Part shown: in pieces, positions 3,527-13,290 of the stretch
Position numbering within the stretch: position 1 is the first letter of the stretch
Layout of the letters: each line of letters starts with the position of its first letter
Source of the DNA: Candidatus Flemingiibacterium sp.
GTDB lineage: Bacteria > Bacillota > Clostridia > Oscillospirales > CAG-272
Direction of reading: 5' to 3'
NCBI GenBank assembly: GCA_045579745.1
Contig: JAZNMQ010000020.1
Coordinates: 4,108 to 68,107 of the forward strand
Length of the DNA stretch: 64,000 nucleotides
The notes under the pieces: model-generated
Database searches by the model: none
The model's input: the letters and a program-made list of their open reading frames with translations, nothing else
Told to the model about the DNA's origin: nothing
Made by a program: the position numbers and the translations under genes

Positions 3527-6391
3527 TTATGAAGCAAGCTTGCTCGGGATCACATCTTTTTCATTGATAAGATGCAGACTGTCATTCTCAATCCAACCGT
3601 AATATACGTCAGATGTTTCGCTTAAATCTATTTTAAGGAGCAGATCATGAGATTTATATTGCAGATTGGATTCAGTGTAAATCCAGAATTGGTGTGCTTC
3701 CGGGAAGATACTTTGAACTACGCTGTTGATATCACACTTGAGAATTGCACCGTTTTCGCGTTTGTATAGGGTAATAATTGCTCCCATAGAACCGTATGCT
3801 TCAAGCACCATATCCCCAACTGCAGTCGCACTCTTATTACAGACCAGTATCAAATTGGGATTGCTATTCTCGAATGTATAATAGCATATGTCAGATGAGT
3901 TCGCTCCGGTTTCATAGGAAAGGATAAGTCCGTCTTCGCCAAGTACATTCTCAAATGGCTGCCATTTGACCGTATCACGGTATGCAGGGCTGATTTCACG
4001 AAAAGCCGTGTACATATCATTGGTCTTTATTGCGGCATAAGTTTTTGAGCCTTTTGTGTCCACTATGACAAACGACATATTGTTATATGATATCTCGTTA
4101 TATTCACGGGCAATGTCTTCAGGCAGAATCGCGACGGTACTATCACCGTCAAATTTTATAGCTGTCCATGTGAATTGGTCGAGATCATGTATCTGATGAT
4201 CTTCAGCTTCTTCGGAAGATGGATAATATGGAATTACAGTTTCACCTTCAAACACCAGCGTCTTACCCACAAGGTGCTGATACGAGGGTGCATCGCAGGC
4301 GCGAATATCCATAAGCAATGTTGTGCCTTCGATTCCCATCGAGTACCCGAGAGTAAATTTCAATGTGAATTCTGCTTCCTTTGCCGATTGGCTGAGTGAA
4401 CGGAGCGTTGCTGTTTGCTCATAGCTAAGAGGATTTATGGTATATGTACCAACATAGCGGCTTGCATCCTTTTCGGATCCTATACCATCATCAAACTGTA
4501 TCTGTGCAGTTCTGGTGACGATAGAAAGGCGATATGAATGTTCGCCGTTATCATCTGTGTAACTGCTGTCCCATACGCCGTTGAATGTGTCATCCAAAAC
4601 CAATGTCGGCGAATCGGCATATCCATCCGTATTCGGTACAAAAGTCAGCGGAATAGGATCTTTTACAGTTAATGTATCAACACCGCTGCTTTCACAGATA
4701 AAGTGAACAAAGCCGCCGTATTCGTACAGTTTTCCTTTAACCTCAGACTCCGGATAAATTTTGATCTCTCCATTATCTGCATATCTGCCAATAAGCTTTG
4801 CGGTGAAATCTCCCGTTTCAACGTCATACTGATAGGTGCCTTCATAATTGATCGGGCCGCCTGTACCCACAAGACCGGCATTCGCATAAATGGTTCCGTC
4901 ATTTTGAATATAGATGGAATGGCTCCAGAAATCATAGTTGAAATTGCCCTGTATGAAACGGTATGCGAGGCAGGTAAACATTCCGTCAAGCTCTCCGGTG
5001 TACGGTTTTCCGTTTTTGAGAACCTTATCCTTTGTAAAGGTTTCAACTTCCTCCACAGATTCGATATTACCGTCTTGGGAAGTAACACGGTATGTTCGAA
5101 GAGATTTGAAGTTTCCCATCGACCACCACGAATTGCCTACACCCATAACGTAATACAGTGTTCCGTCTTCACCCGCATGGAGGACATTACCGTCAGGAAA
5201 GCGTGCTTCTGTCCCCTTGCCATATACACCGGCAACGGTTATGAAGTCCCGTTCATCTTCAAGAGGAATGTCGACCTTATATTGGGTTTTATCTTCGGTC
5301 GTCCCAGCATCCGTTTCGGGCGAGAACCGCTCAAGCGTCACTGTACGGGACGATGAATCTTTATCGATCGTAACATATATCTGCGTTTTATCATCTGAAT
5401 ATTTCAGCTCGCGTATATACTCTCCGGCATCTAATACCAAATCCACAAAAAACGTTCCATCAAAGCTTCTTATTGTATTCCAATAAGCGTAAACGATCGT
5501 GCTGATATCATCACCATAATATGTTGGAACAGAACCGGTAAAATGATGTTCGATCTTTTGAGCTTCGGGATTGATCACAGCAAAAAGGCTGATGTTCGGA
5601 TTGATATGTCCAGCTGCGATCACATATTCACCTATGCGTCCCCACTCCTCTACGCCGTTAACTCCGGAATATATCTCAGATAAATCATATTTGACTCCGT
5701 CATATTCGAACGTTTGCCAAGGTTTTGGCTCCACGGGCATCTGCCCCAAGGCTTCAAATAGCTTTTCTGCCATCAATTCAAACGACGAAAAGCGGATTTC
5801 TCCGTCTTCGGTCAAGGTATAGGTACAATACGCCGTAGCAGAGAGCTCACGGTTGTTTTCGGTCATAGTCGCATCAACTTTGACCGTATAATTGCCGTTT
5901 TCAGCGTTTTCAAGAGTAATATTATAGCTTTCTCCGACATCATATCCAAACAAGGCGGTATATCCGTCAAAACGGAACAGTCTGCCTTCAATCTCTGCAA
6001 AAAGCGGGTGCTGGTCTTCAACAGTTTTGGACATCAGCTCATCAGTGAGTTCTGCGCTGAAGTACTGTTCACAAAACTCACGAAGCTCAGCAAGTGTGGT
6101 GTACCCATTAATATCAACCTCTCTGTATTCAGCTCCGTCCTTGGAGGTTGTAGCATTTGTATAGATATCACTGCGGTAGCCGGTAAACAGGGCATACACA
6201 TGCTCTGCGTCATGGTAAAAATCCAAGAATTTCTCAGGCAGATCCGTGTCGGGAGATGAGCCTTGATGGAGATTGTTATCCGTGCTTTCGGTCTGAGTTC
6301 CATCATCAGAATCAGTGTCAGACGAACAACCTACTGCACTCAATGTAAAAATAAGTGCAAGGATCAAGCATATCCAGATGTATTTTTTCAT
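3527..6391 (-). CDS. large secreted lipoprotein, function unknown
   Basis: ORF 3527-6415. I moved the start to ATG 6391, which is preceded by GGGAGGGG. Signal peptide MKKYIWICLILALIFTLSAVGC with a lipobox. 954 aa with no catalytic motif I recognise. Confidence 0.8.
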   Translation of the reverse strand: MKKYIWICLILALIFTLSAVGCSSDTDSDDGTQTESTDNNLHQGSSPDTDLPEKFLDFYHDAEHVYALFTGYRSDIYTNATTSKDGAEYREVDINGYTTLAELREFCEQYFSAELTDELMSKTVEDQHPLFAEIEGRLFRFDGYTALFGYDVGESYNITLENAENGNYTVKVDATMTENNRELSATAYCTYTLTEDGEIRFSSFELMAEKLFEALGQMPVEPKPWQTFEYDGVKYDLSEIYSGVNGVEEWGRIGEYVIAAGHINPNISLFAVINPEAQKIEHHFTGSVPTYYGDDISTIVYAYWNTIRSFDGTFFVDLVLDAGEYIRELKYSDDKTQIYVTIDKDSSSRTVTLERFSPETDAGTTEDKTQYKVDIPLEDERDFITVAGVYGKGTEARFPDGNVLHAGEDGTLYYVMGVGNSWWSMGNFKSLRTYRVTSQDGNIESVEEVETFTKDKVLKNGKPYTGELDGMFTCLAYRFIQGNFNYDFWSHSIYIQNDGTIYANAGLVGTGGPINYEGTYQYDVETGDFTAKLIGRYADNGEIKIYPESEVKGKLYEYGGFVHFICESSGVDTLTVKDPIPLTFVPNTDGYADSPTLVLDDTFNGVWDSSYTDDNGEHSYRLSIVTRTAQIQFDDGIGSEKDASRYVGTYTINPLSYEQTATLRSLSQSAKEAEFTLKFTLGYSMGIEGTTLLMDIRACDAPSYQHLVGKTLVFEGETVIPYYPSSEEAEDHQIHDLDQFTWTAIKFDGDSTVAILPEDIAREYNEISYNNMSFVIVDTKGSKTYAAIKTNDMYTAFREISPAYRDTVKWQPFENVLGEDGLILSYETGANSSDICYYTFENSNPNLILVCNKSATAVGDMVLEAYGSMGAIITLYKRENGAILKCDINSVVQSIFPEAHQFWIYTESNLQYKSHDLLLKIDLSETSDVYYGWIENDSLHLINEKDVIPSKLAS

Positions 6392-6663
6392 AATGCCCCT
6401 CCCTTTCAGCAGCATAATATCAAGACAGTTTAAATTATTTATCAGTGATGAATTGTATTTACGCGTTATTCTGTCAATTAGACGAAATTCGCGTCATTTT
6501 TGTTCCCATCCAATGTGAAAAATCACAGATGGCACTGCAGAACAAAGCTATCGGGAAATACCCCTGACCGAATTCTGAAGTTGAGTACAGAATGATTGAT
6601 ATATTTTGCAAAAATGTATGTTCAAACGCTTCAGAAAGGCAGCGACTCATTACCTATAGACGA

Positions 6664-6692
6664 TTGACAATTTGACAAAATGGTGTTATAAT
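6664..6692 (+). promoter_or_regulatory. sigma-A-type promoter of the repeat-lipoprotein / kinase-like / PqqD operon
   Basis: TTGACA 6664-6669, a 17-nt spacer, then extended -10 TGtTATAAT 6684-6692. Confidence 0.65.
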
Positions 6693-6864
6693 ATATGGTG
6701 TATAAAAATATCCATTTGGTATTGCTTGCCACGGTAGAGTGCTGCCGCCTGAAAATTGGCAGTACAATTACCAATTTGCGCGAGATCTATGATTTTGACC
6801 TCGACCAATATCAATCAAATAAGGTCTGCCTTAATTGGCAGATAATTTTAAAGGAAGAGTAAAA

Positions 6865-7602
6865 ATGAAGAAACTGATTTTATTGATACTTACCCTTGCT
6901 TTGTGTATTTCGCTCGCTGCTTGCGGAGCTGATGACGAGAATAGCGGCGATACGGAAGCACCTGAGCAAGACATTAGTGAAAACACAAGCGATAATTCAG
7001 GCAATGCTGACGCCGATACAACCGCAGGTGATGAAGCCGCCGATCCCGATACACTCGAGTCGAGTGATACTTCTCCTGACGACACAACCAAGTCAGATGA
7101 CACAACTGCTGCTCCCGATACGACCGAGTCAACCGATTCTTCCTCTGACGACACGACCAAGTCAGATGACACAACCGCTGCTCCCGATACGACCTGGTCG
7201 AGCGATTCTTCCTCTGACGACACGACCAAGTCAGATGACACAACTGCTGCTCCTGATACAACCGAATCAAGTGATACTTCCTCTGACGACACAATTAAGT
7301 CAGATGACACAACCGCTGCTCCCGATACGACCGGGTCGAGCGATTCTTCCTCTGACGACACAACTAAGGCTGAGGACACAACCGGATCTCCCGATACGAC
7401 CGAGTCAACCGATTCTTCCTCCGAGGACACGACTACGGCTGAGGATACAACTGCTGCTCCTGATACAACCGAGTCAGATGATACTTCTTCCGAGGATACA
7501 ACTACGTCCGACGACACGACTAAGTCTGAGGACACAACTTCCGGCAGTGGAAACAGCGGCGGCAATCAAGGCAGTATACTATTGCCACCCGACGAATTTT
7601 AA
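6865..7602 (+). CDS. acidic Ser/Thr/Asp-rich tandem-repeat lipoprotein
   Basis: ORF 6835-7602. Start placed at ATG 6865, after AAAGGAAGAG. Signal peptide MKKLILLILTLALCISLAAC with a classical lipobox LAAC. The mature part is almost entirely D/S/T/E/A/P and ends in GSILLPPDEF. Confidence 0.8.
   Translation: MKKLILLILTLALCISLAACGADDENSGDTEAPEQDISENTSDNSGNADADTTAGDEAADPDTLESSDTSPDDTTKSDDTTAAPDTTESTDSSSDDTTKSDDTTAAPDTTWSSDSSSDDTTKSDDTTAAPDTTESSDTSSDDTIKSDDTTAAPDTTGSSDSSSDDTTKAEDTTGSPDTTESTDSSSEDTTTAEDTTAAPDTTESDDTSSEDTTTSDDTTKSEDTTSGSGNSGGNQGSILLPPDEF
7045..7527 (+). repeat. seven tandem 69-bp (23-aa) repeats inside the lipoprotein gene
   Basis: Unit PDTTESxDSSSDDTTKSDDTTAA is repeated in frame. 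Units start at 7045, 7114, 7183 and so on. The last units are degenerate. Confidence 0.9.
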
Positions 7603-7604
7603 TT

Positions 7605-8318
7605 ATGACGCAAACCTATAAATTAGCTTGCCACTCCTTTGCGATCTGCTCTTTTCATGAGGCGGTGCATCGGATGTTCAGAGATTACAAAACCGACGAG
7701 CAAGCCGAGTTTATCATTACAACCGAGCAGGCTGACATCGATTTTGAGCGAAGCCGTGCAACCTCTGACGGATTTTCCGACAGCTACCTCGAAACCCTTG
7801 CGGTTTACAGAAAGCTTTGCGAAAAGCTGATTGAGGACGATATAGTGCTGTTTCATTGCTCGGCACTTGAAATAGACGGCACAGCATATCTATTCACCGC
7901 GCCGAGCGGCACGGGAAAATCCACGCATACAAGGCTTTGGCGTGAGTATTTCGGAAGCCGCGTAACGATGATAAACGATGACAAGCCGCTTTTGAAGATT
8001 GACGATAACAAAATCACAGTTTACGGCACGCCCTACGGTGGTAAGGATAGAATTCAGACAAACACTTCGGCAAAAGTGGGCGGTATTGTCATTTTGCACC
8101 AGGCAAAGGAAAACACTATCCGCAGAATCACACCAAAGGAAGCCTATCCAATGCTGTTTAATCAAACTCACAGACCGAGCGATATATCAAAGCTCACTCG
8201 CACGATGGAGCTCGTTCAAGCAATTGCAAAACTGCCGATTTATTCACTCGGCTGCAATATTTCAAGCGAGGCAGTCGAGCTTTGCTACAACTCATTGACA
8301 GGAGATAAAAAGAAATGA
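7605..8318 (+). CDS. HPr kinase/phosphorylase-like (HprK-related) P-loop protein
   Basis: ATG lies 2 nt after the stop of the upstream gene. P-loop FTAPSGTGKSTHTRLW resembles the HprK C-terminal domain GxSGxGKS. Confidence 0.7.
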   Translation: MTQTYKLACHSFAICSFHEAVHRMFRDYKTDEQAEFIITTEQADIDFERSRATSDGFSDSYLETLAVYRKLCEKLIEDDIVLFHCSALEIDGTAYLFTAPSGTGKSTHTRLWREYFGSRVTMINDDKPLLKIDDNKITVYGTPYGGKDRIQTNTSAKVGGIVILHQAKENTIRRITPKEAYPMLFNQTHRPSDISKLTRTMELVQAIAKLPIYSLGCNISSEAVELCYNSLTGDKKK

Positions 8319-8581
8319 AATTAAAAGAGGGCGTATTTTTACACAAAACAGGAAGCGAATTCATGGGCGTTACTCAGGGCAAAGCGGCAAAGGCATTCAA
8401 CGGCTTGATTCGCAACAACGAAACTGCAAATGAGATCTATATTCTTTTGCAGAATGAAACCACCGAGGAAGCTGTGGTCGATGCCATGTGCGAAAAGTAT
8501 GACGCGCCACGAGAAGTAATAGCAAGGGATGTTCACGGTGTGATCGAACAGATTCGCGCCGCAGGACTGCTTGATGAATAA
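8315..8581 (+). CDS. PqqD-family protein (RiPP recognition element-like)
   Basis: ATGA overlap with the upstream stop. 88 aa. The length and C-terminal helix pattern (EVIARDVHGVIEQIRAAGLL) are typical of PqqD/RRE proteins. Confidence 0.7.
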   Translation: MKLKEGVFLHKTGSEFMGVTQGKAAKAFNGLIRNNETANEIYILLQNETTEEAVVDAMCEKYDAPREVIARDVHGVIEQIRAAGLLDE

Positions 8582-9011
8582 GCCATCGGTTTTGGCAGAC
8601 GAGCTGTCAAAGGGTAAGGCCGTACTGTCTGGCACATCTGGGGACAGCATGCAGCCGCTTTTGTATCAAGGGAAAACACAGATCGTTTTAGTGCCGATTA
8701 CTTCCCCGCTTAAAAAATGGGATTTACCCCTCTATCGCCGTCCGAGCGGTCAGTTTGTTCTGCACCGAATTATAAAATCGGACGATGAGTTTTACTATAC
8801 AAGGGGCGACAACAGGCATGGGCTTGAAAAAGTTCCTAAGGAATGGTGCCTCGGTGTGGTCAGCGAGATCAAGCGAGCAGGCAAAACCATATCCGTAACC
8901 GATAAGGGTTATCGTGCCTATTTGCATTTTTGGAGCCTGATTTACCCGTTTAGATACGTTTGGTACAGAATAAGAAGCATTATTAAATCTGTTCGCAGGA
9001 GATTAAAATGA
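8571..9011 (+). CDS. S24/S26-family serine peptidase (signal-peptidase-I/LexA-like fold)
   Basis: 11-nt overlap with the PqqD gene. Nucleophile motif SGDSMQPLL and a downstream TRGDN box. Confidence 0.65.
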   Translation: MMNKPSVLADELSKGKAVLSGTSGDSMQPLLYQGKTQIVLVPITSPLKKWDLPLYRRPSGQFVLHRIIKSDDEFYYTRGDNRHGLEKVPKEWCLGVVSEIKRAGKTISVTDKGYRAYLHFWSLIYPFRYVWYRIRSIIKSVRRRLK

Positions 9012-10168
9012 CAGACGAGAAAAATCAATCGATATACAATTTAATCTACCTCGTTGGCTGCGCTGTGACCGGAACTGCCACAGATCCCGAACGCGTGTCA
9101 AAAATGGATCTGCAAAAGGTCTATCATGCTTCAAGCCGGCACATGATGACCGCTTTGGTGTGGGAAGCTATCAAAAATTCACCCATAGCCGATAATGAGC
9201 TCATGGAAAAATTCTCCAAAAAGAGCGTCAAGGCGGCTCGAAAAAATCTGCTTCTTGACACCGAGAGAGCAAGGCTTTGCGCCTATCTCGACACACTCGG
9301 CGTTTGGAGAATTCCGCTCAAAGGTGTTGTACTTAAGGAACTCTACCCTAAGCAGGAAATGCGACAGATGTCGGATAACGATATTCTCTTTGACAGGGCA
9401 TTTGAAGAAGAGGTTCATAAATGGTTTTTGGGCGAGGGCTATGAAGTTGTTGTCTACAGAAGAACCAACCATAATACCTACAAAAAAGAACCCATCTATA
9501 ATTTTGAAATGCACACCGCGCTCATGGGAGCCTCAGCTGATGAGCGTTGGCAACGCTATTACGAAAATGTCAAGGAACGTCTTGTCAAAGACGACAGCGG
9601 CGAGTACGGCTATCATTTTACGGACGATGATTTTTATATCTATATCACAACTCACGCCTACAAGCATTACAGCAATAGAGGAACCGGACTTCGCTCCCTG
9701 CTTGACACCTTTGTATATTTGAATGTAAAGGGCGACACGCTCAATTTTGACTACATACAGGCTGAATGCGAAAAACTTGGCATTGCGGAATTTGAATCAG
9801 CACAAAGAAGCCTCACGAAAAGGGTATTTTCACAGCCCGACAGCTTTTCTCCTGATGATCTTTCCGAGGCTGTAGCCGAAATGCTCTCATATTTCGCGTT
9901 TTCGGGTACATACGGCACACAAGCAAATCACGTAGAAAATGCTCTAAAGGGAATAGGCGGCAAAAACGCCAAAATGAAATATATGATTTCAAGGCTCTTC
10001 CCTCCTATGGAATTTTATAAAAACCACTATCCGAAAATCTACAAAAGTAAGATCTTGATTCCGTTTTTCTGCGTATACCGCATTTTGAGGATCCCGTTCA
10101 AAGGTGCCAAACGAATTTGGAATGAATTAGGGCATGTACTTCGCAGCAAAGCCAATAAAACAGAATAA
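9008..10168 (+). CDS. uncharacterised nucleotidyltransferase family protein (PF14907-like)
   Basis: ATGA overlap with the upstream stop. Motif LKGVVLKELYPKQEMRQMSDNDILFD matches the KG..L...YP...R..D.D.L signature of this family. Confidence 0.65.
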   Translation: MTDEKNQSIYNLIYLVGCAVTGTATDPERVSKMDLQKVYHASSRHMMTALVWEAIKNSPIADNELMEKFSKKSVKAARKNLLLDTERARLCAYLDTLGVWRIPLKGVVLKELYPKQEMRQMSDNDILFDRAFEEEVHKWFLGEGYEVVVYRRTNHNTYKKEPIYNFEMHTALMGASADERWQRYYENVKERLVKDDSGEYGYHFTDDDFYIYITTHAYKHYSNRGTGLRSLLDTFVYLNVKGDTLNFDYIQAECEKLGIAEFESAQRSLTKRVFSQPDSFSPDDLSEAVAEMLSYFAFSGTYGTQANHVENALKGIGGKNAKMKYMISRLFPPMEFYKNHYPKIYKSKILIPFFCVYRILRIPFKGAKRIWNELGHVLRSKANKTE

Positions 10169-10188
10169 GTATTGAGTTCAGACAAAAA

Positions 10189-10220
10189 GCAGTAAATCCA
10201 AACGGATTTACTGCTTTTTT
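10189..10220. terminator. bidirectional intrinsic terminator
   Basis: GCAGTAAATCC (10189-10199) / GGATTTACTGC (10204-10214), flanked by an A-run upstream and a T-run downstream. It sits between convergent operons. Confidence 0.8.
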
Positions 10221-10355
10221 ATATAAATTGAGTTTAAATTTGAGATACAGCTATTGATAAATCGGTTTATCGGGAGTAAACCATATTAAATTTATTGACC
10301 GTAAACTAAGATGAGAGCTTATTATGGCTAAAAAATTTGGAATCGTGGAATGAAT

Positions 10356-10979
10356 CTACTTTATTTCATGCAGTGCATCTTCCTTCTGATAACGGATCAG
10401 CTCATTGCGTTCAAATTCTGCTTTTTTCCATAGCCAATAATATGGGATCATCAGGAGTGAACAGTACATAACAAGATACAACAGATAACATCCAAAATAA
10501 GCAAAATAATCTGCCGGGACATATTCCAAACCTTGTCTAATGCGTGTACTCGCATCCACCTTGAACATATAGAGAAACTCGAACAAATGACACGGTATAA
10601 TCGTCACTACAGCTGTACCAGCCAAATGGGAAAAATCTATAAAGCCGATCAAAAGCCGAACCACTTCACCGGGTATAACGAAAATTAAAAAGTTTCGAAG
10701 CCAATTATGTTTTCCTTCACTATGTTTATACTGATCCGAAACACATTTAGCGAAATAGATAGTTGATAAGCCAGCAGCTCCGATCATTGGCAAACTAATT
10801 AAAATACCGTGCCATACTGCCATTACTTGTCTGATACCAATTAATAACGGTGTCATAAGTAGGTTTTGTAGTATGACATAAATCCATAATGCTCCATAAT
10901 TCACAATAAAAGACACACAACCATAACCAAATATTTGTGCACCATCAACGCTCGGTACAAATGTTTTTTCTTTTTTCAT
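10356..10979 (-). CDS. integral membrane protein, function unknown
   Basis: ORF 10356-11015. ATG 10979 is preferred (GGAAGG upstream; it also avoids overlap with the ATPase gene). Multiple hydrophobic spans. Last gene of the metal ATPase operon. Confidence 0.6.
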   Translation of the reverse strand: MKKEKTFVPSVDGAQIFGYGCVSFIVNYGALWIYVILQNLLMTPLLIGIRQVMAVWHGILISLPMIGAAGLSTIYFAKCVSDQYKHSEGKHNWLRNFLIFVIPGEVVRLLIGFIDFSHLAGTAVVTIIPCHLFEFLYMFKVDASTRIRQGLEYVPADYFAYFGCYLLYLVMYCSLLMIPYYWLWKKAEFERNELIRYQKEDALHEIK

Positions 10980-10998
10980 ATCCGACGAACCTTCCTTA

Positions 10999-12891
10999 CT
11001 ATAATTTATGTACATTCAGCGCACGGATTGCATTTAGTATGGCAAGCACCATAACACCCACATCCGCGAAAATGCCGATCCACATTCCCGCCAATCCCAC
11101 AGCAGTCAACACAAGACATATCAGCTTTACACCAATTGCGAAAAATACATTTTGCTTTACGATTCTAACGCATTTTTTTGAAATTTTAATCGCCTTTGCA
11201 ACCTTCATCGGATTGTCGTCCATCAAAACTACATCGGCGGCTTCGATTGCGGCATCGGAGCCCATCGCGCCCATCGCAATGCCGATATCCGCGCGTGAAA
11301 GCACAGGTGCATCGTTGATTCCGTCGCCGACAAATGCAAGCCGTTCCTTTTTCGGTTTTCGACTTAATATTTCCTCAACCCTTGAAACCTTATCGTCAGG
11401 AAGCAAATCGCTGTAGTATTCATCAATTTTAAGAGCCTCAGCCACGCCGCTTGCAACTATATTGCTGTCGCCCGTCAGCATAACCGTTTTTTTGATGCCG
11501 ACTTTTTTGAGCTCTGAAATCGCTTTTGCAGACTCCCTCTTTATGACATCCGAAATCACAATATGTCCCGCATAGCGTCCGTCAATCGCAATATGAGTGA
11601 TCGTTCCCACTTTATGACAATCCTCATATGATACGCCGACATCTCTCATGAGCCTTACGCTTCCGCATGCGACCTTTTTGCCGTCCACCCTCGCGATTAC
11701 ACCATGACCGCTGATTTCCTCGATCTCGTCCACACGACTGCGGTCGAGCTCTCTGCCGTATGCCTTTTGAAGGCTTTTGCTGATCGGATGCGAGCTTGCG
11801 CATTCGGAAAGCGCGGCGTATTCAATCAGCTTTGCCGCTTCCATCTCGTTGTGATGTACGCCCGTAACTTCAAATACGCCCTCGGTAAGCGTGCCCGTTT
11901 TGTCAAATATAACATATTTAGTTTCGGATAGCGCCTCAAGATAGTTTGAGCCTTTAATCAGAATGCCCTCCTTACTCGCACCTCCCAAGCCTGCAAAAAA
12001 GCTGAGCGGAACACTGATAACAAGCGCGCAAGGGCAGCTTATTACAAGAAATGTGAGCGCTCTGTAAATCCAATCACCGAAATTCGCCTCAAAGCCTGCC
12101 GCAAGGCTGACAAGCGGCGGCAGTAGTGCAAGCACCACCGCTCCGATACAAACGGCAGGTGTATAAATTCGGGAAAATTTAGATATAAAGCTCTCCGATT
12201 TCGACTTTCTGCTGCTCGCATTTTCAACAAGCTCGAGAATTTTCGAAACGGTTGATTCGCCGAACTCCTTTGTTGTCCTGACGGTGAGCACACCGTTTAG
12301 ATTGATGCATCCGCTTATTACATCATCGCCTGTATTCACCTCACGAGGCAGGCTCTCGCCCGTCAGCGCGCTCGTGTTAAGGCTTGATGAGCCGTTTACA
12401 ACAACTCCGTCAAGCGGAATTTTTTCGCCCGGCTGAACGGTAATTTCACATCCCACCTCAACCTCGTCCGGCGAAACCCGAATAAGTCTTCCGTCCTTTT
12501 CGATATTAGCATAATCAGGGCGAATATCCATAAGCGCACTGATATTCCGCCTGCTTTTTCCAACCGCATAGCTCTCAAACCATTCGCCGATCTGATAGAA
12601 CAGCATAACTGCGATCGCTTCGTTGTAATCGCCCGTTTTGGAGTAAATTGCAAGCGCGATCGCGCCAATCGTCGCGATAGACATCAAGAAGCTTTCGTCA
12701 AGAACTCTGCCGTTTATTATTCCCTTTGATGCTTTTATGAGTATGTCATACCCGATTATCAGATAGCATGACATGAACAGCACGAACCTCAAAGCATCCG
12801 TTGTCGGAATGAGATTCAGAATGATTATAAGTACCGTCGAAACAAGAATCCGCGTTAAATTCTTTTTCTGCTTTTTAGTCATATCAAGCAC
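10999..12891 (-). CDS. heavy-metal-translocating P1B-type ATPase (Cd/Zn/Co-type)
   Basis: Motifs SCPCALVIS (CPC), DKTGTLT, SSHPISKS, TGDS and VGDGINDAP. Confidence 0.9.
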   Translation of the reverse strand: MLDMTKKQKKNLTRILVSTVLIIILNLIPTTDALRFVLFMSCYLIIGYDILIKASKGIINGRVLDESFLMSIATIGAIALAIYSKTGDYNEAIAVMLFYQIGEWFESYAVGKSRRNISALMDIRPDYANIEKDGRLIRVSPDEVEVGCEITVQPGEKIPLDGVVVNGSSSLNTSALTGESLPREVNTGDDVISGCINLNGVLTVRTTKEFGESTVSKILELVENASSRKSKSESFISKFSRIYTPAVCIGAVVLALLPPLVSLAAGFEANFGDWIYRALTFLVISCPCALVISVPLSFFAGLGGASKEGILIKGSNYLEALSETKYVIFDKTGTLTEGVFEVTGVHHNEMEAAKLIEYAALSECASSHPISKSLQKAYGRELDRSRVDEIEEISGHGVIARVDGKKVACGSVRLMRDVGVSYEDCHKVGTITHIAIDGRYAGHIVISDVIKRESAKAISELKKVGIKKTVMLTGDSNIVASGVAEALKIDEYYSDLLPDDKVSRVEEILSRKPKKERLAFVGDGINDAPVLSRADIGIAMGAMGSDAAIEAADVVLMDDNPMKVAKAIKISKKCVRIVKQNVFFAIGVKLICLVLTAVGLAGMWIGIFADVGVMVLAILNAIRALNVHKL

Positions 12892-12897
12892 CGTTAA

Positions 12898-13116
12898 TCA
12901 CAGCGTTATTTCAAAATCAGGCTCAATCCGTCTGCAGGCCTTGAGCACCGCCGAAAGAACCTTCTTTTCGTCGGCGTCGCTTTCAAATTCTATTGTCATT
13001 TTTTGTGTCATATAGTTTATATTTGCAGTCAAAACACCGTCTATTTTTGCAGCCGCACTTTCGCAGAGATTTGCACAGTTTGCGCAGTCTACTTCTATGG
13101 CGTAGATTTTTTTCAT
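12898..13116 (-). CDS. heavy-metal-associated (HMA) domain metallochaperone-like protein
   Basis: ORF 12898-13215. I moved the start to ATG 13116, which is preceded by GGAGA. Metal-binding motif CANCANLCE sits near the N-terminus. 72 aa. Confidence 0.75.
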   Translation of the reverse strand: MKKIYAIEVDCANCANLCESAAAKIDGVLTANINYMTQKMTIEFESDADEKKVLSAVLKACRRIEPDFEITL

Positions 13117-13290
13117 AATAATCTCCATTCCGCCGCGCTGTGGCGGCACAAATACTGAAGTTGAATTGATGTGCCGCTTTGCGGCAAAAATGGGACGAGT
13201 CCCATTTTTAATCAATTTAAGGCGTGAAATCGTTTACTTTATTACACGCTAAACTAAACTTTCACGCTAAATCCTCCTGACAGTTCATTT

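Follow-up and report, generated by a model that had tools for sequence, protein, structure and literature searches.

The question raised by this locus is which peptide or protein its enzymes act on. In a 64,000-nt stretch of DNA from Candidatus Flemingiibacterium sp. (the whole of it being referred to below as the window), five genes on the forward strand lie between one perfect promoter and one strong terminator, the last four being tightly coupled. The first gene encodes an acidic Ser/Thr/Asp-rich lipoprotein, followed by genes for an HprK-like kinase, a PqqD-family protein, a signal-peptidase-like protein and a PF14907 nucleotidyltransferase. A sequence-only reading had seen here a non-lasso, so-far-uncharacterised modification pathway with the lipoprotein as candidate substrate. 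Judged by homology, the four enzymes form the lppK-B-S-N set of the recently described linear polyphosphorylated peptide (LPP) family, and we lean, not strongly, towards the view that the operon is a reduced clostridial LPP cluster, with its precursor provided in trans and with the lipoprotein as an extracellular partner rather than a substrate.

The LPP family (Popov et al., Nat Commun 2026;17:6633, May 2026; PMC13381572, the source of all statements in this paragraph) has been found starting from archaeal-type signal peptidases of Bacilli associated with a recognition element (RRE) of peptides made on the ribosome and modified after translation (RiPPs), and comprises about 126 mostly Bacilli sequences. 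The conserved set consists of a signal peptidase I (SpI)-like peptidase, a discrete RRE, a kinase resembling HprK, a nucleotidyltransferase (NTP transferase) and a transporter resembling MsbA. The prototype, lppA-K-B-S-D-N from Paenibacillus alginolyticus DSM5050, was expressed in B. subtilis. The leader of the LPP precursor reads YxxPxVLxHQxIxFETxxS, and the RRE LppB binds YxxP of the LppA leader, N33 and D70 fixing the Pro kink and the Tyr, while the LppA replacements Y-16A and P-13A weaken RRE binding. Up to four phosphates are added by LppK to Ser3 of the core, just past the cleavage site. LppS (catalytic S29, H68 and D93) cuts after T-1, only with LppB and inefficiently without the kinase, the phosphorylated precursor being preferred, and F-3, E-2 and T-1 of LppA are needed for the cleavage. 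Deletion of LppN caused no change in the B. subtilis host; its lasso-cluster counterpart PsmN is required for adding a hexose onto the phosphate. Export by the MsbA-like pump is predicted. LPP clusters are often situated within capsule loci. Split clusters are on record, and Supplementary Data 1 has entries for precursors and RREs located 'elsewhere in the genome'.

The window enzymes are encoded in the lppK-lppB-lppS-lppN order, the K-B-S-(D)-N order of related clostridial loci equals lppKBSDN, and no macrolactam cyclase is encoded in the window operon; what distinguishes the window from LPP clusters is the lack of lppA and lppD. Since the enzymes are homologous to lppK-B-S-N, the pathway is non-lasso and has by now been described. 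The non-lasso part of the sequence-only claim thus stands, as no cyclase, B2 protease, radical-SAM or YcaO gene is present in the window and no neighbour family recurs in 80 related loci. 'So-far-uncharacterised' has to be dropped, because the same gene set and order have been described, and partly reconstituted, as the LPP family (PMC13381572).

The four enzymes

The lppS-like leader peptidase (8574..9011, forward strand; 145 aa, or 146 aa from TTG 8571, the start from which its residues are numbered here) is of the S26 SipW/Sec11 type. Comparison of its family with LppS (WP_029196374.1) by hhalign yields probability 98.1 and E-value 1.1e-13, with S26 and H65 aligned to S29 and H68, and the spacing between Ser and His is 39 residues in both the window peptidase and LppS. 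The catalytic set consists of Ser26, His65 and Asp80/Glu86, and the invariant residues are G24, S26, P29, H65, R66, G79, D80 and E86. The protein had been classed as a Ser-Lys-type S24/S26 peptidase, which proved incorrect: the box with the catalytic Lys of LexA and bacterial signal peptidases is LHRI in this protein, with the His invariant in 33 homologues, so the base is His65 in an HR motif. This box aligns with HRV of SEC11A and AHRF of LppS. In profile comparisons, the peptidase matches signal peptidase I and SEC11A, the GDSM, HR and GDN boxes being aligned. A Ser/Lys LexA-like autoprotease, also considered, was ruled out by the His base and the LppS homology. The local Pfam copy produced no match for this protein; its AlphaFold2 (AF2) model has a predicted local distance difference test score (pLDDT) of 94, and the top Foldseek matches are SpsB, C-terminal domains of LexA and lambda repressor, SipA and SEC11A.

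The peptidase has C-terminal amphipathic helices and no N-terminal membrane anchor, and its catalytic domain is therefore presumably cytoplasmic. With SipW of Bacillus subtilis (tapA-sipW-tasA) and Sec11 it shares the S26 fold, the Ser/His(/Asp) catalytic residues and the GxSMxP, HR and GDN boxes, and with SipW the situation of a dedicated peptidase encoded beside its clients. It differs from them in the lack of the anchor and in its predicted clients, which would be RiPP leaders presented by the RRE, not Sec signals. In the dataset of PMC13381572 it is 38% identical to a Ruminococcus entry with LPP features given as 'not determined', placed in a separate similarity cluster.

The lppB-like discrete RRE (8315..8581, forward strand; 88 aa, PqqD family) matches PF05402 at 9.8e-14, in agreement with the earlier PqqD assignment, and lasso_PqqD_Strm at 1e-7, its top match in PDB being the lasso RRE TbiB1. 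Pairwise BLASTP of the window RRE against LppB shows no similarity, and the relationship was found by profile comparison (hhalign of the RRE family against LppB: E-value 2e-5, probability 77). The leader-binding residues N33 and D70 of LppB map to N35 and D72, both invariant in 28 clostridial RREs. With its YxxP pocket intact, the window RRE argues for the existence of a leader-bearing ligand.

The lppK-like kinase (7605..8318, forward strand; 237 aa) is a P-loop protein of the HprK/PEPCK fold, as follows from its motifs and from the AF2 and Foldseek results. Walker A (APSGTGKST), H84 and N124-D125-D126-K127-P128 are invariant in 30 homologues, including the DD metal site, as in PsmK (D158/D159). 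The AF2 model (pLDDT 94) matches ATP-dependent PEP carboxykinase and HprK/P in Foldseek searches (E-values 4e-7 to 1e-4). Given these invariant motifs and structural matches, the earlier label 'HPr-kinase-like' is right as far as fold and signature are concerned. A fold search was required, as the kinase profile yielded nothing useful against PDB sequences; single-sequence PDB searches gave chance matches alone (aspartokinase, VapB), which were discarded. There is no match in the local Pfam copy, PF07475 included. Weak matches to NCBIfam ScmC and HprK_rel_A/B are observed, the best being ScmC (TIGR04249; 6.5e-5), restricted to the P-loop region and scoring 22.4 bits against a cut-off of 125; the family label PF27840 'ScmC' comes from precomputed annotation. 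In the public annotation of this gene (P0001, 214 aa), the protein begins too late, 23 codons downstream of ATG 7605 (7605-7673 being left out), because the 23 residues encoded there can be aligned with 29 homologues. The family is very large: at least 7,854 of 8,000 scored candidates have E-values of 0.001 or below, and more than 7,800 distinct homologues at 90% clustering come nearly all from uncultured or metagenomic sources (e.g. gut, rumen).

The lppN/psmN-like nucleotidyltransferase (9008..10168, forward strand; 386 aa) was correctly placed in PF14907, NTP_transf_5 (1.5e-39). G106, R119, D123 and D125 are invariant in 42 of 42 homologues, and the DxD motif (D123/D125) corresponds to D134/D136 of PsmN, the double mutant of which is inactive (PMC6993621). 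Thus, in the kinase-like and nucleotidyltransferase-like proteins alike, the catalytic residues are invariant in homologue alignments. As for assignment by family models, which the sequence-only reading had proposed for each gene, it succeeded for PqqD and PF14907, while the kinase and the peptidase remained unmatched in the local Pfam copy and were resolved by structure and profiles.

A different known system, SynChlorMet, resembles the operon in that the kinase is labelled PF27840 'ScmC' and a PqqD-family protein is adjacent. The differences are the lack of the ScmE/ScmF radical SAM/SPASM enzymes, other taxa and another remainder of the cassette. A SynChlorMet cassette was rejected, as there is no radical SAM gene in the operon and the ScmC score is far under the cut-off.

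Related clostridial loci and their precursor peptides

Species-representative genomes were scanned with the kinase alignment, which yielded 80 loci, mostly from metagenome-assembled genomes of Oscillospiraceae, Ruminococcus and Lachnospiraceae, plus Kandleria. Twelve additional loci were obtained by exact-protein look-ups; features were counted over 86 loci, 41 of which have sufficient flanks (well-flanked loci). Individual loci are denoted by L and a number, followed where needed by positions.

The recurrent unit is kinase - PqqD - peptidase - ABC (ATP-binding cassette) exporter (ABC_membrane + ABC_tran, ~570 aa) - PF14907, some loci having a permuted gene order or fusions of S and N. Among the 41 well-flanked loci, the RRE is present in 36, the peptidase in 33, the exporter in 26 and PF14907 in 25. 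The peptidase is fused to PF14907 in L047:10974-12476 (500 aa) and L059:1143-2690 (515 aa), and in L082:11065-13149 it is a part of a 694-aa protein; these fusions support physical or functional coupling of the components. The nearest relatives of the window for which upstream sequence is available, L086 and L088 (kinases 61% identical), have lost lppN. One or two extra genes are inserted between kinase and RRE in L001:8705-10278, L004:8736-9773 and L091:3853-5450, and one is located directly upstream of the kinase gene in L067:703-1701; the product has 320-345 aa, an N-terminal transmembrane (TM) helix and coiled coils at both ends, and in L001 and L091 it is followed by a ~200-aa protein (with a weak DUF4428/zinc-ribbon match in L001). 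Orphan ScmC/LppK-like kinase genes, with no RRE, peptidase or PF14907 nearby, are found in L005:8001-8720, L090:156-866 and L092:5001-5690, and further ones in L010, L013, L018, L029 and L070. Some of them sit in polysaccharide or cell-wall loci (Wzy_C, glucosaminidase), and hence the family may have clients besides LPP precursors.

No core RiPP enzyme recurs beside the cassette: among 65 distinct large same-strand neighbours in the 80 loci, each Pfam family is represented at most twice, and Asn_synthase a single time. A radical-SAM gene is found in six related loci, among them L014, L017 (8637-9998), L038, L081 and L084; its product is ~450 aa long (PF04055, Fer4_12, a Cys-rich C-terminus) and is sometimes accompanied by Cys-containing cores, so that these loci may represent hybrid LPP/radical-SAM pathways.

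These observations bear on the possibility that the four genes make up the tailoring module for a RiPP pathway of the lasso or radical-SAM kind, the core enzyme of which is encoded elsewhere in the genome. The locus indeed resembles paeninodin/pseudomycoidin-type lasso clusters, for which an HprK-like Ser-polyphosphorylating kinase (PadeK/PsmK), a PqqD-type RRE reading [Y/W]xxP and a PF14907-like NTP transferase (hexose on phosphate) are typical, and most clostridial relatives share an ABC exporter with them; in Bacilli, a third of the SpI genes have lasso genes linked to them (PMC13381572), and the few loci with radical-SAM genes named above fit this possibility as well. Still, a lasso cluster was rejected, as neither an Asn-synthetase-like cyclase nor a B2 cysteine protease is present among the window open reading frames (ORFs) near the cassette; the leader would be removed by an S26 Ser/His peptidase and the product is expected to be linear. 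A tailoring module seems to us highly improbable too, given the lack of cyclase, B2 and radical-SAM genes in the window, the lack of a recurrent core enzyme in the 80 loci, and the dedicated SipW-type peptidase, which defines the linear LPP route, a linear phosphopeptide having been demonstrated with no cyclase.

Small ORFs upstream of the cassette form a precursor family (38 curated members, with hidden Markov model (HMM) matches in 40 of the 86 loci) that has no model in Pfam or NCBIfam. The clostridial precursor consists of a leader, (K)YExPxMEVIxFExEDVITTS, and a short hypervariable core. As in LPP clusters, the related loci carry YxxP...FE(T)...S leaders along with an MsbA-like pump. The leader keeps YxxP and F-E-(T/A/S), and differs from that of the LPP family in a P-to-F spacer shorter by 3 residues and in the conserved EDVITTS after FE(T). 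The Ser of EDVITTS is invariant, 12 of the 38 cores have no other Ser or Thr, and by sequence comparison this Ser obviously corresponds to Ser3, the phospho-acceptor of LppA. Cleavage after the invariant Ser of ...DVITTS was considered, and was displaced by the homology with LppA (F-3, E-2, T-1 | x x S3); by this analogy, cleavage after FE(T/A/S), with the Ser serving as phospho-acceptor, is more likely. In L023:2215-3220, six tandem precursor genes, located directly upstream of the kinase gene, encode near-identical leaders and differing short acidic cores (e.g. GIIDGDED, GELIEDGDED, VGDYEDGDTD). A literature search on PF14907 with PqqD, on ScmC/SynChlorMet and on the peptide motif EDVITTS found nothing relevant.

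Searched with the HMM of the 38 leaders in six frames, the 64-kb window contains no precursor (best E-value 0.13), nor is there a homologue of the MsbA-like pump gene lppD. A 55-aa ORF at 6695-6862 was discarded as precursor candidate, since it starts 3 nt past the -10 box and has no leader motif. In the reading that we favour, the intact window enzymes would act, as in Paenibacillus, on an LppA with a leader, the gene for which lies elsewhere in the genome.

The stalk lipoprotein and its operon

The lipoprotein gene (6865..7602, forward strand; 245 aa, ORF 6835-7602) probably starts at ATG 6865, behind AAAGGAAGAG; the N-terminus is MKKLILLILTLALCISLAAC, with the lipobox LAAC, which agrees with the pattern [LVI][ASTVI][GAS]C. 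Lipoprotein models give weak N-terminal matches only, and the local Pfam copy gives none. The mature part, which we call the stalk, is 85% polar or small residues (S, T, D, E, P, G, N, Q), D and E making up 29%, and ends with the tail SILLPPDEF. There is no Tyr in the protein, no YxxP or WxxP and no leader-like segment.

The sequence-only reading had asked whether a repeat lipoprotein travels with orthologous cassettes, and it does: 21 of the 86 loci have a lipoprotein gene immediately upstream of that for the kinase, a juxtaposition spanning Oscillospiraceae and Lachnospiraceae, and three lipoprotein genes are situated elsewhere in the locus. The lipoprotein is likewise present in L086 and L088. 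The related lipoproteins are 100-257 aa long, with an acidic, low-complexity mature part rich in Ser, Thr, Glu and Pro. The stalk is hypervariable between loci, while the last 8-10 residues are conserved: most tails read [IV]ELPF[VI]P plus 2-5 residues, and those of the nearest relatives are VVVLPPHEF (L086) and IIVVLPPHKF (L088). In L009 the motif (AIDLPFVPYEE) comes after the site of signal-peptide cleavage and a C-terminal TM helix serves as anchor, so that the motif is always at the free extracellular end.

Moreover, the tails resemble the cores of the precursors encoded in the same locus. Similarity of tail and core is higher within loci than between them (permutation p = 4e-4 against shuffled pairings), as illustrated by core GELPFVPAE and tail IELPFVPAF in L071, PPEGKQVDPFAG and SPEGELLDPFE in L065, AIDLPDDLF and AVQLPEDSFF in L082, GPIVPLS and LPIIPLN in L001, NETDILSINQW and NELPILTVN in L091. 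Because of its recurrence upstream of the kinase gene, its conserved tail and this within-locus resemblance, the lipoprotein is a genuine partner of the cassette that had not been reported before. As an extracellular partner in the favoured reading, it would be an acidic, lipid-anchored and probably disordered stalk, with a short conserved 'hook', SILLPPDEF, exposed at its free end, and the hook and the secreted peptide would engage one common partner. As the hook resembles the cognate LPP core in sister loci, the lipoprotein may be considered a membrane-tethered analogue of the secreted peptide.

Alternatively, the lipoprotein itself may be the substrate, its Ser/Thr-rich stalk or tail being polyphosphorylated before Sec export and capped by the PF14907 enzyme, with an anionic surface polymer as the result and with the RRE reading the C-terminal tail. 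No candidate peptide or protein other than the lipoprotein is co-transcribed in the window, in L088 or in L079; these loci also have no ABC exporter, which would be superfluous for a Sec lipoprotein. The common tail IELPFVP agrees with the knobs-into-holes pattern [Y/W]xxPx[L/V/I/F/A], with I/V replacing Y, and (E/D)(E/D)TT(x)S motifs are abundant in the stalk of the window protein and its closest relatives. However, LppA Y-16A and P-13A weaken RRE binding and the lipoprotein has no Tyr, YxxP or WxxP at all, and the window tail ILLPPD would place an Asp in the second hydrophobic pocket. Furthermore, the lipoprotein is a client of Sec/Lgt/Lsp, exported and lipidated, whereas the four enzymes have no signal peptides. 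Only the tail, not the stalk sequence, is conserved between loci; the motif at the mature N-terminus of L009, with its C-terminal anchor, points to extracellular display rather than to a cytoplasmic tag; about 75% of cassettes have no such lipoprotein, and the normal substrates of the cassette are small YxxP-leader peptides (40 of 86 loci). We hence regard a lipoprotein substrate as unlikely, a short core-like C-terminal tail being more in keeping with a partner at the surface or a tethered analogue than with a substrate.

A further explanation is that the operon is a decaying or orphaned LPP remnant that has lost its precursor and exporter, and the lipoprotein is an unrelated passenger sharing the promoter. 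The absence of lppA and lppD from the 64-kb window, the loss of lppN from L086 and L088 and the existence of orphan kinase genes (L005, L090, L092) agree with that. But the four ORFs are intact and translationally coupled, with every tested catalytic or binding residue conserved, and a passenger would not be expected to be juxtaposed with the kinase in 21 loci of two families or to have a conserved tail that co-varies with core peptides. The probability of a remnant with a passenger is, in our estimation, quite low.

Several observations still weigh against a cluster with the precursor in trans and the lipoprotein as partner. For this genome the in-trans precursor is an assumption, neither LppA nor an exporter being encoded in the window. 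As was already mentioned, three loci (the window, L088 and L079) have no co-transcribed candidate besides the lipoprotein, and the nearest relatives retain the latter more faithfully than the small peptide. Among the well-flanked loci, 16 of 41 have neither a recognisable precursor nor a lipoprotein. The stalk motifs (E/D)(E/D)TT(x)S faintly recall the conserved EDVITTS phospho-acceptor region, and the kinase and the nucleotidyltransferase are likened to LppK and LppN by fold or family, motifs and operon position.

The boundaries of the operon had been proposed as one promoter and one terminator bracketing five genes, and both signals are confirmed. The sigma-70-type promoter (6664..6692, forward strand) is TTGACA-17 nt-TATAAT with a TG extension, matching the consensus in 12 of 12 positions; it is the sole perfect match within 5000-12000, a region where promoter-like sites overall are at chance level (15 found, 14.6 expected). 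A strong promoter, TTGACA...TAAAAT, also directly precedes the lipoprotein gene in L086 and L088. The 5' untranslated leader (6693..6864, forward strand; ~170 nt) contains, judging from its sequence, two short hairpins, at ~6734-6763 (ctgccgcctgaaaattggcag) and at 6825-6842 (tctgccttaattggcaga), the latter immediately upstream of the ribosome-binding site; it matches no Rfam family at the gathering threshold and shows no conservation with the leaders of L086 and L088. The intrinsic terminator (10184..10219, forward strand), identified by folding, is a perfect 16-bp hairpin whose 3' arm enters the U tract (dG -21.4 kcal/mol, z = -9.2; none of 200 shuffles folds as well). It is overlooked by a simple scan because the T-run pairs with an upstream A-run.

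Inside the operon, the kinase ATG 7605 lies two bases past the lipoprotein stop TAA (7600-7602), the PqqD ATG 8315 overlaps the kinase stop TGA (8316-8318) as ATGA, and the PF14907 ATG 9008 overlaps the peptidase stop TGA (9009-9011) in the same way, all as previously described. The 11-nt overlap of the PqqD and peptidase genes probably needs revision: the peptidase ORF opens with TTG 8571, but ATG 8574, with GCAGGA 7 nt upstream, is the likelier start, and the overlap is then 8 nt. The motifs quoted earlier (APSGTGKST, GDSMQP, GDN, LKG..LYP..R..SDNDILF) are all present.

Directly downstream of the cassette, a gene for a heavy-metal P-type ATPase is found on the reverse strand (10999-12891), preceded by a small HMA-like ORF (12898-13215, reverse strand). 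An HMA/E1-E2 ATPase gene also lies downstream of the cassette in L086 (7766-10270) and L088 (5921-8422), and this synteny supports the orthology of the three loci. A divergent gene at 3527-6415 (reverse strand) encodes a 962-aa lipoprotein (MKKYIWICLILALIFTLSAVGC...), with no match in Pfam or NCBIfam.

Giant secreted proteins and a possible surface role

In related loci, the precursor genes are frequently paired with genes for giant secreted proteins. Of 51 precursor ORFs, 17 are situated within tens of bases downstream of such a gene (500-2,300 aa), for example in L001 (1079-7051, then 7053-7178) and L086 (1693-5151, then 5164-5295); the same pairing is seen in L020, L030, L033, L043, L057, L065, L066, L071 and L082. 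The giant proteins share a ~220-aa C-terminal domain (...LxKALYxYxxAAxxY), carried by 22 loci, that has no Pfam match. This domain was searched for in the window and not found, and it is lacking in the 962-aa lipoprotein. In the 11 loci where BLAST clustering first met giant proteins beside the cassette, the stalk lipoprotein is present in all 11. Neither the stalk lipoprotein nor the giant proteins of many clostridial loci are mentioned in PMC13381572.

One may speculate that in gut and rumen Clostridia a single surface 'hook' exists in two forms, LPP peptide and stalk lipoprotein, one and the same short C-terminal peptide being mounted either on a lipid-anchored acidic stalk or on a polyphosphate(-glycan) head made by LppK/LppN, and that the giant proteins encoded directly before lppA are bound, or competed for, by both forms through their conserved C-terminal domain. 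We put this forward as a tentative and rather doubtful proposal; if it were true, it would constitute a new non-covalent, RiPP-based way of anchoring or releasing large surface proteins, and would give LPPs a biological role, which is listed as open by the authors of PMC13381572.

The cassette as such is already known, having been published in May 2026. New are a large clostridial branch of LPPs with its own leader family, an operon form with neither precursor nor exporter, a conserved stalk lipoprotein with a core-like tail, and the tight pairing of lppA with genes for giant secreted proteins, of which the window has none. The lipoprotein-only, exporter-less form seen in the window is the simplest place to ask whether the enzymes act on the lipoprotein. 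Taken together with the giant proteins, the lipoprotein suggests a testable lead towards a cell-surface function of LPPs, be it anchoring, adhesion or biofilm formation, and not an antibiotic one.

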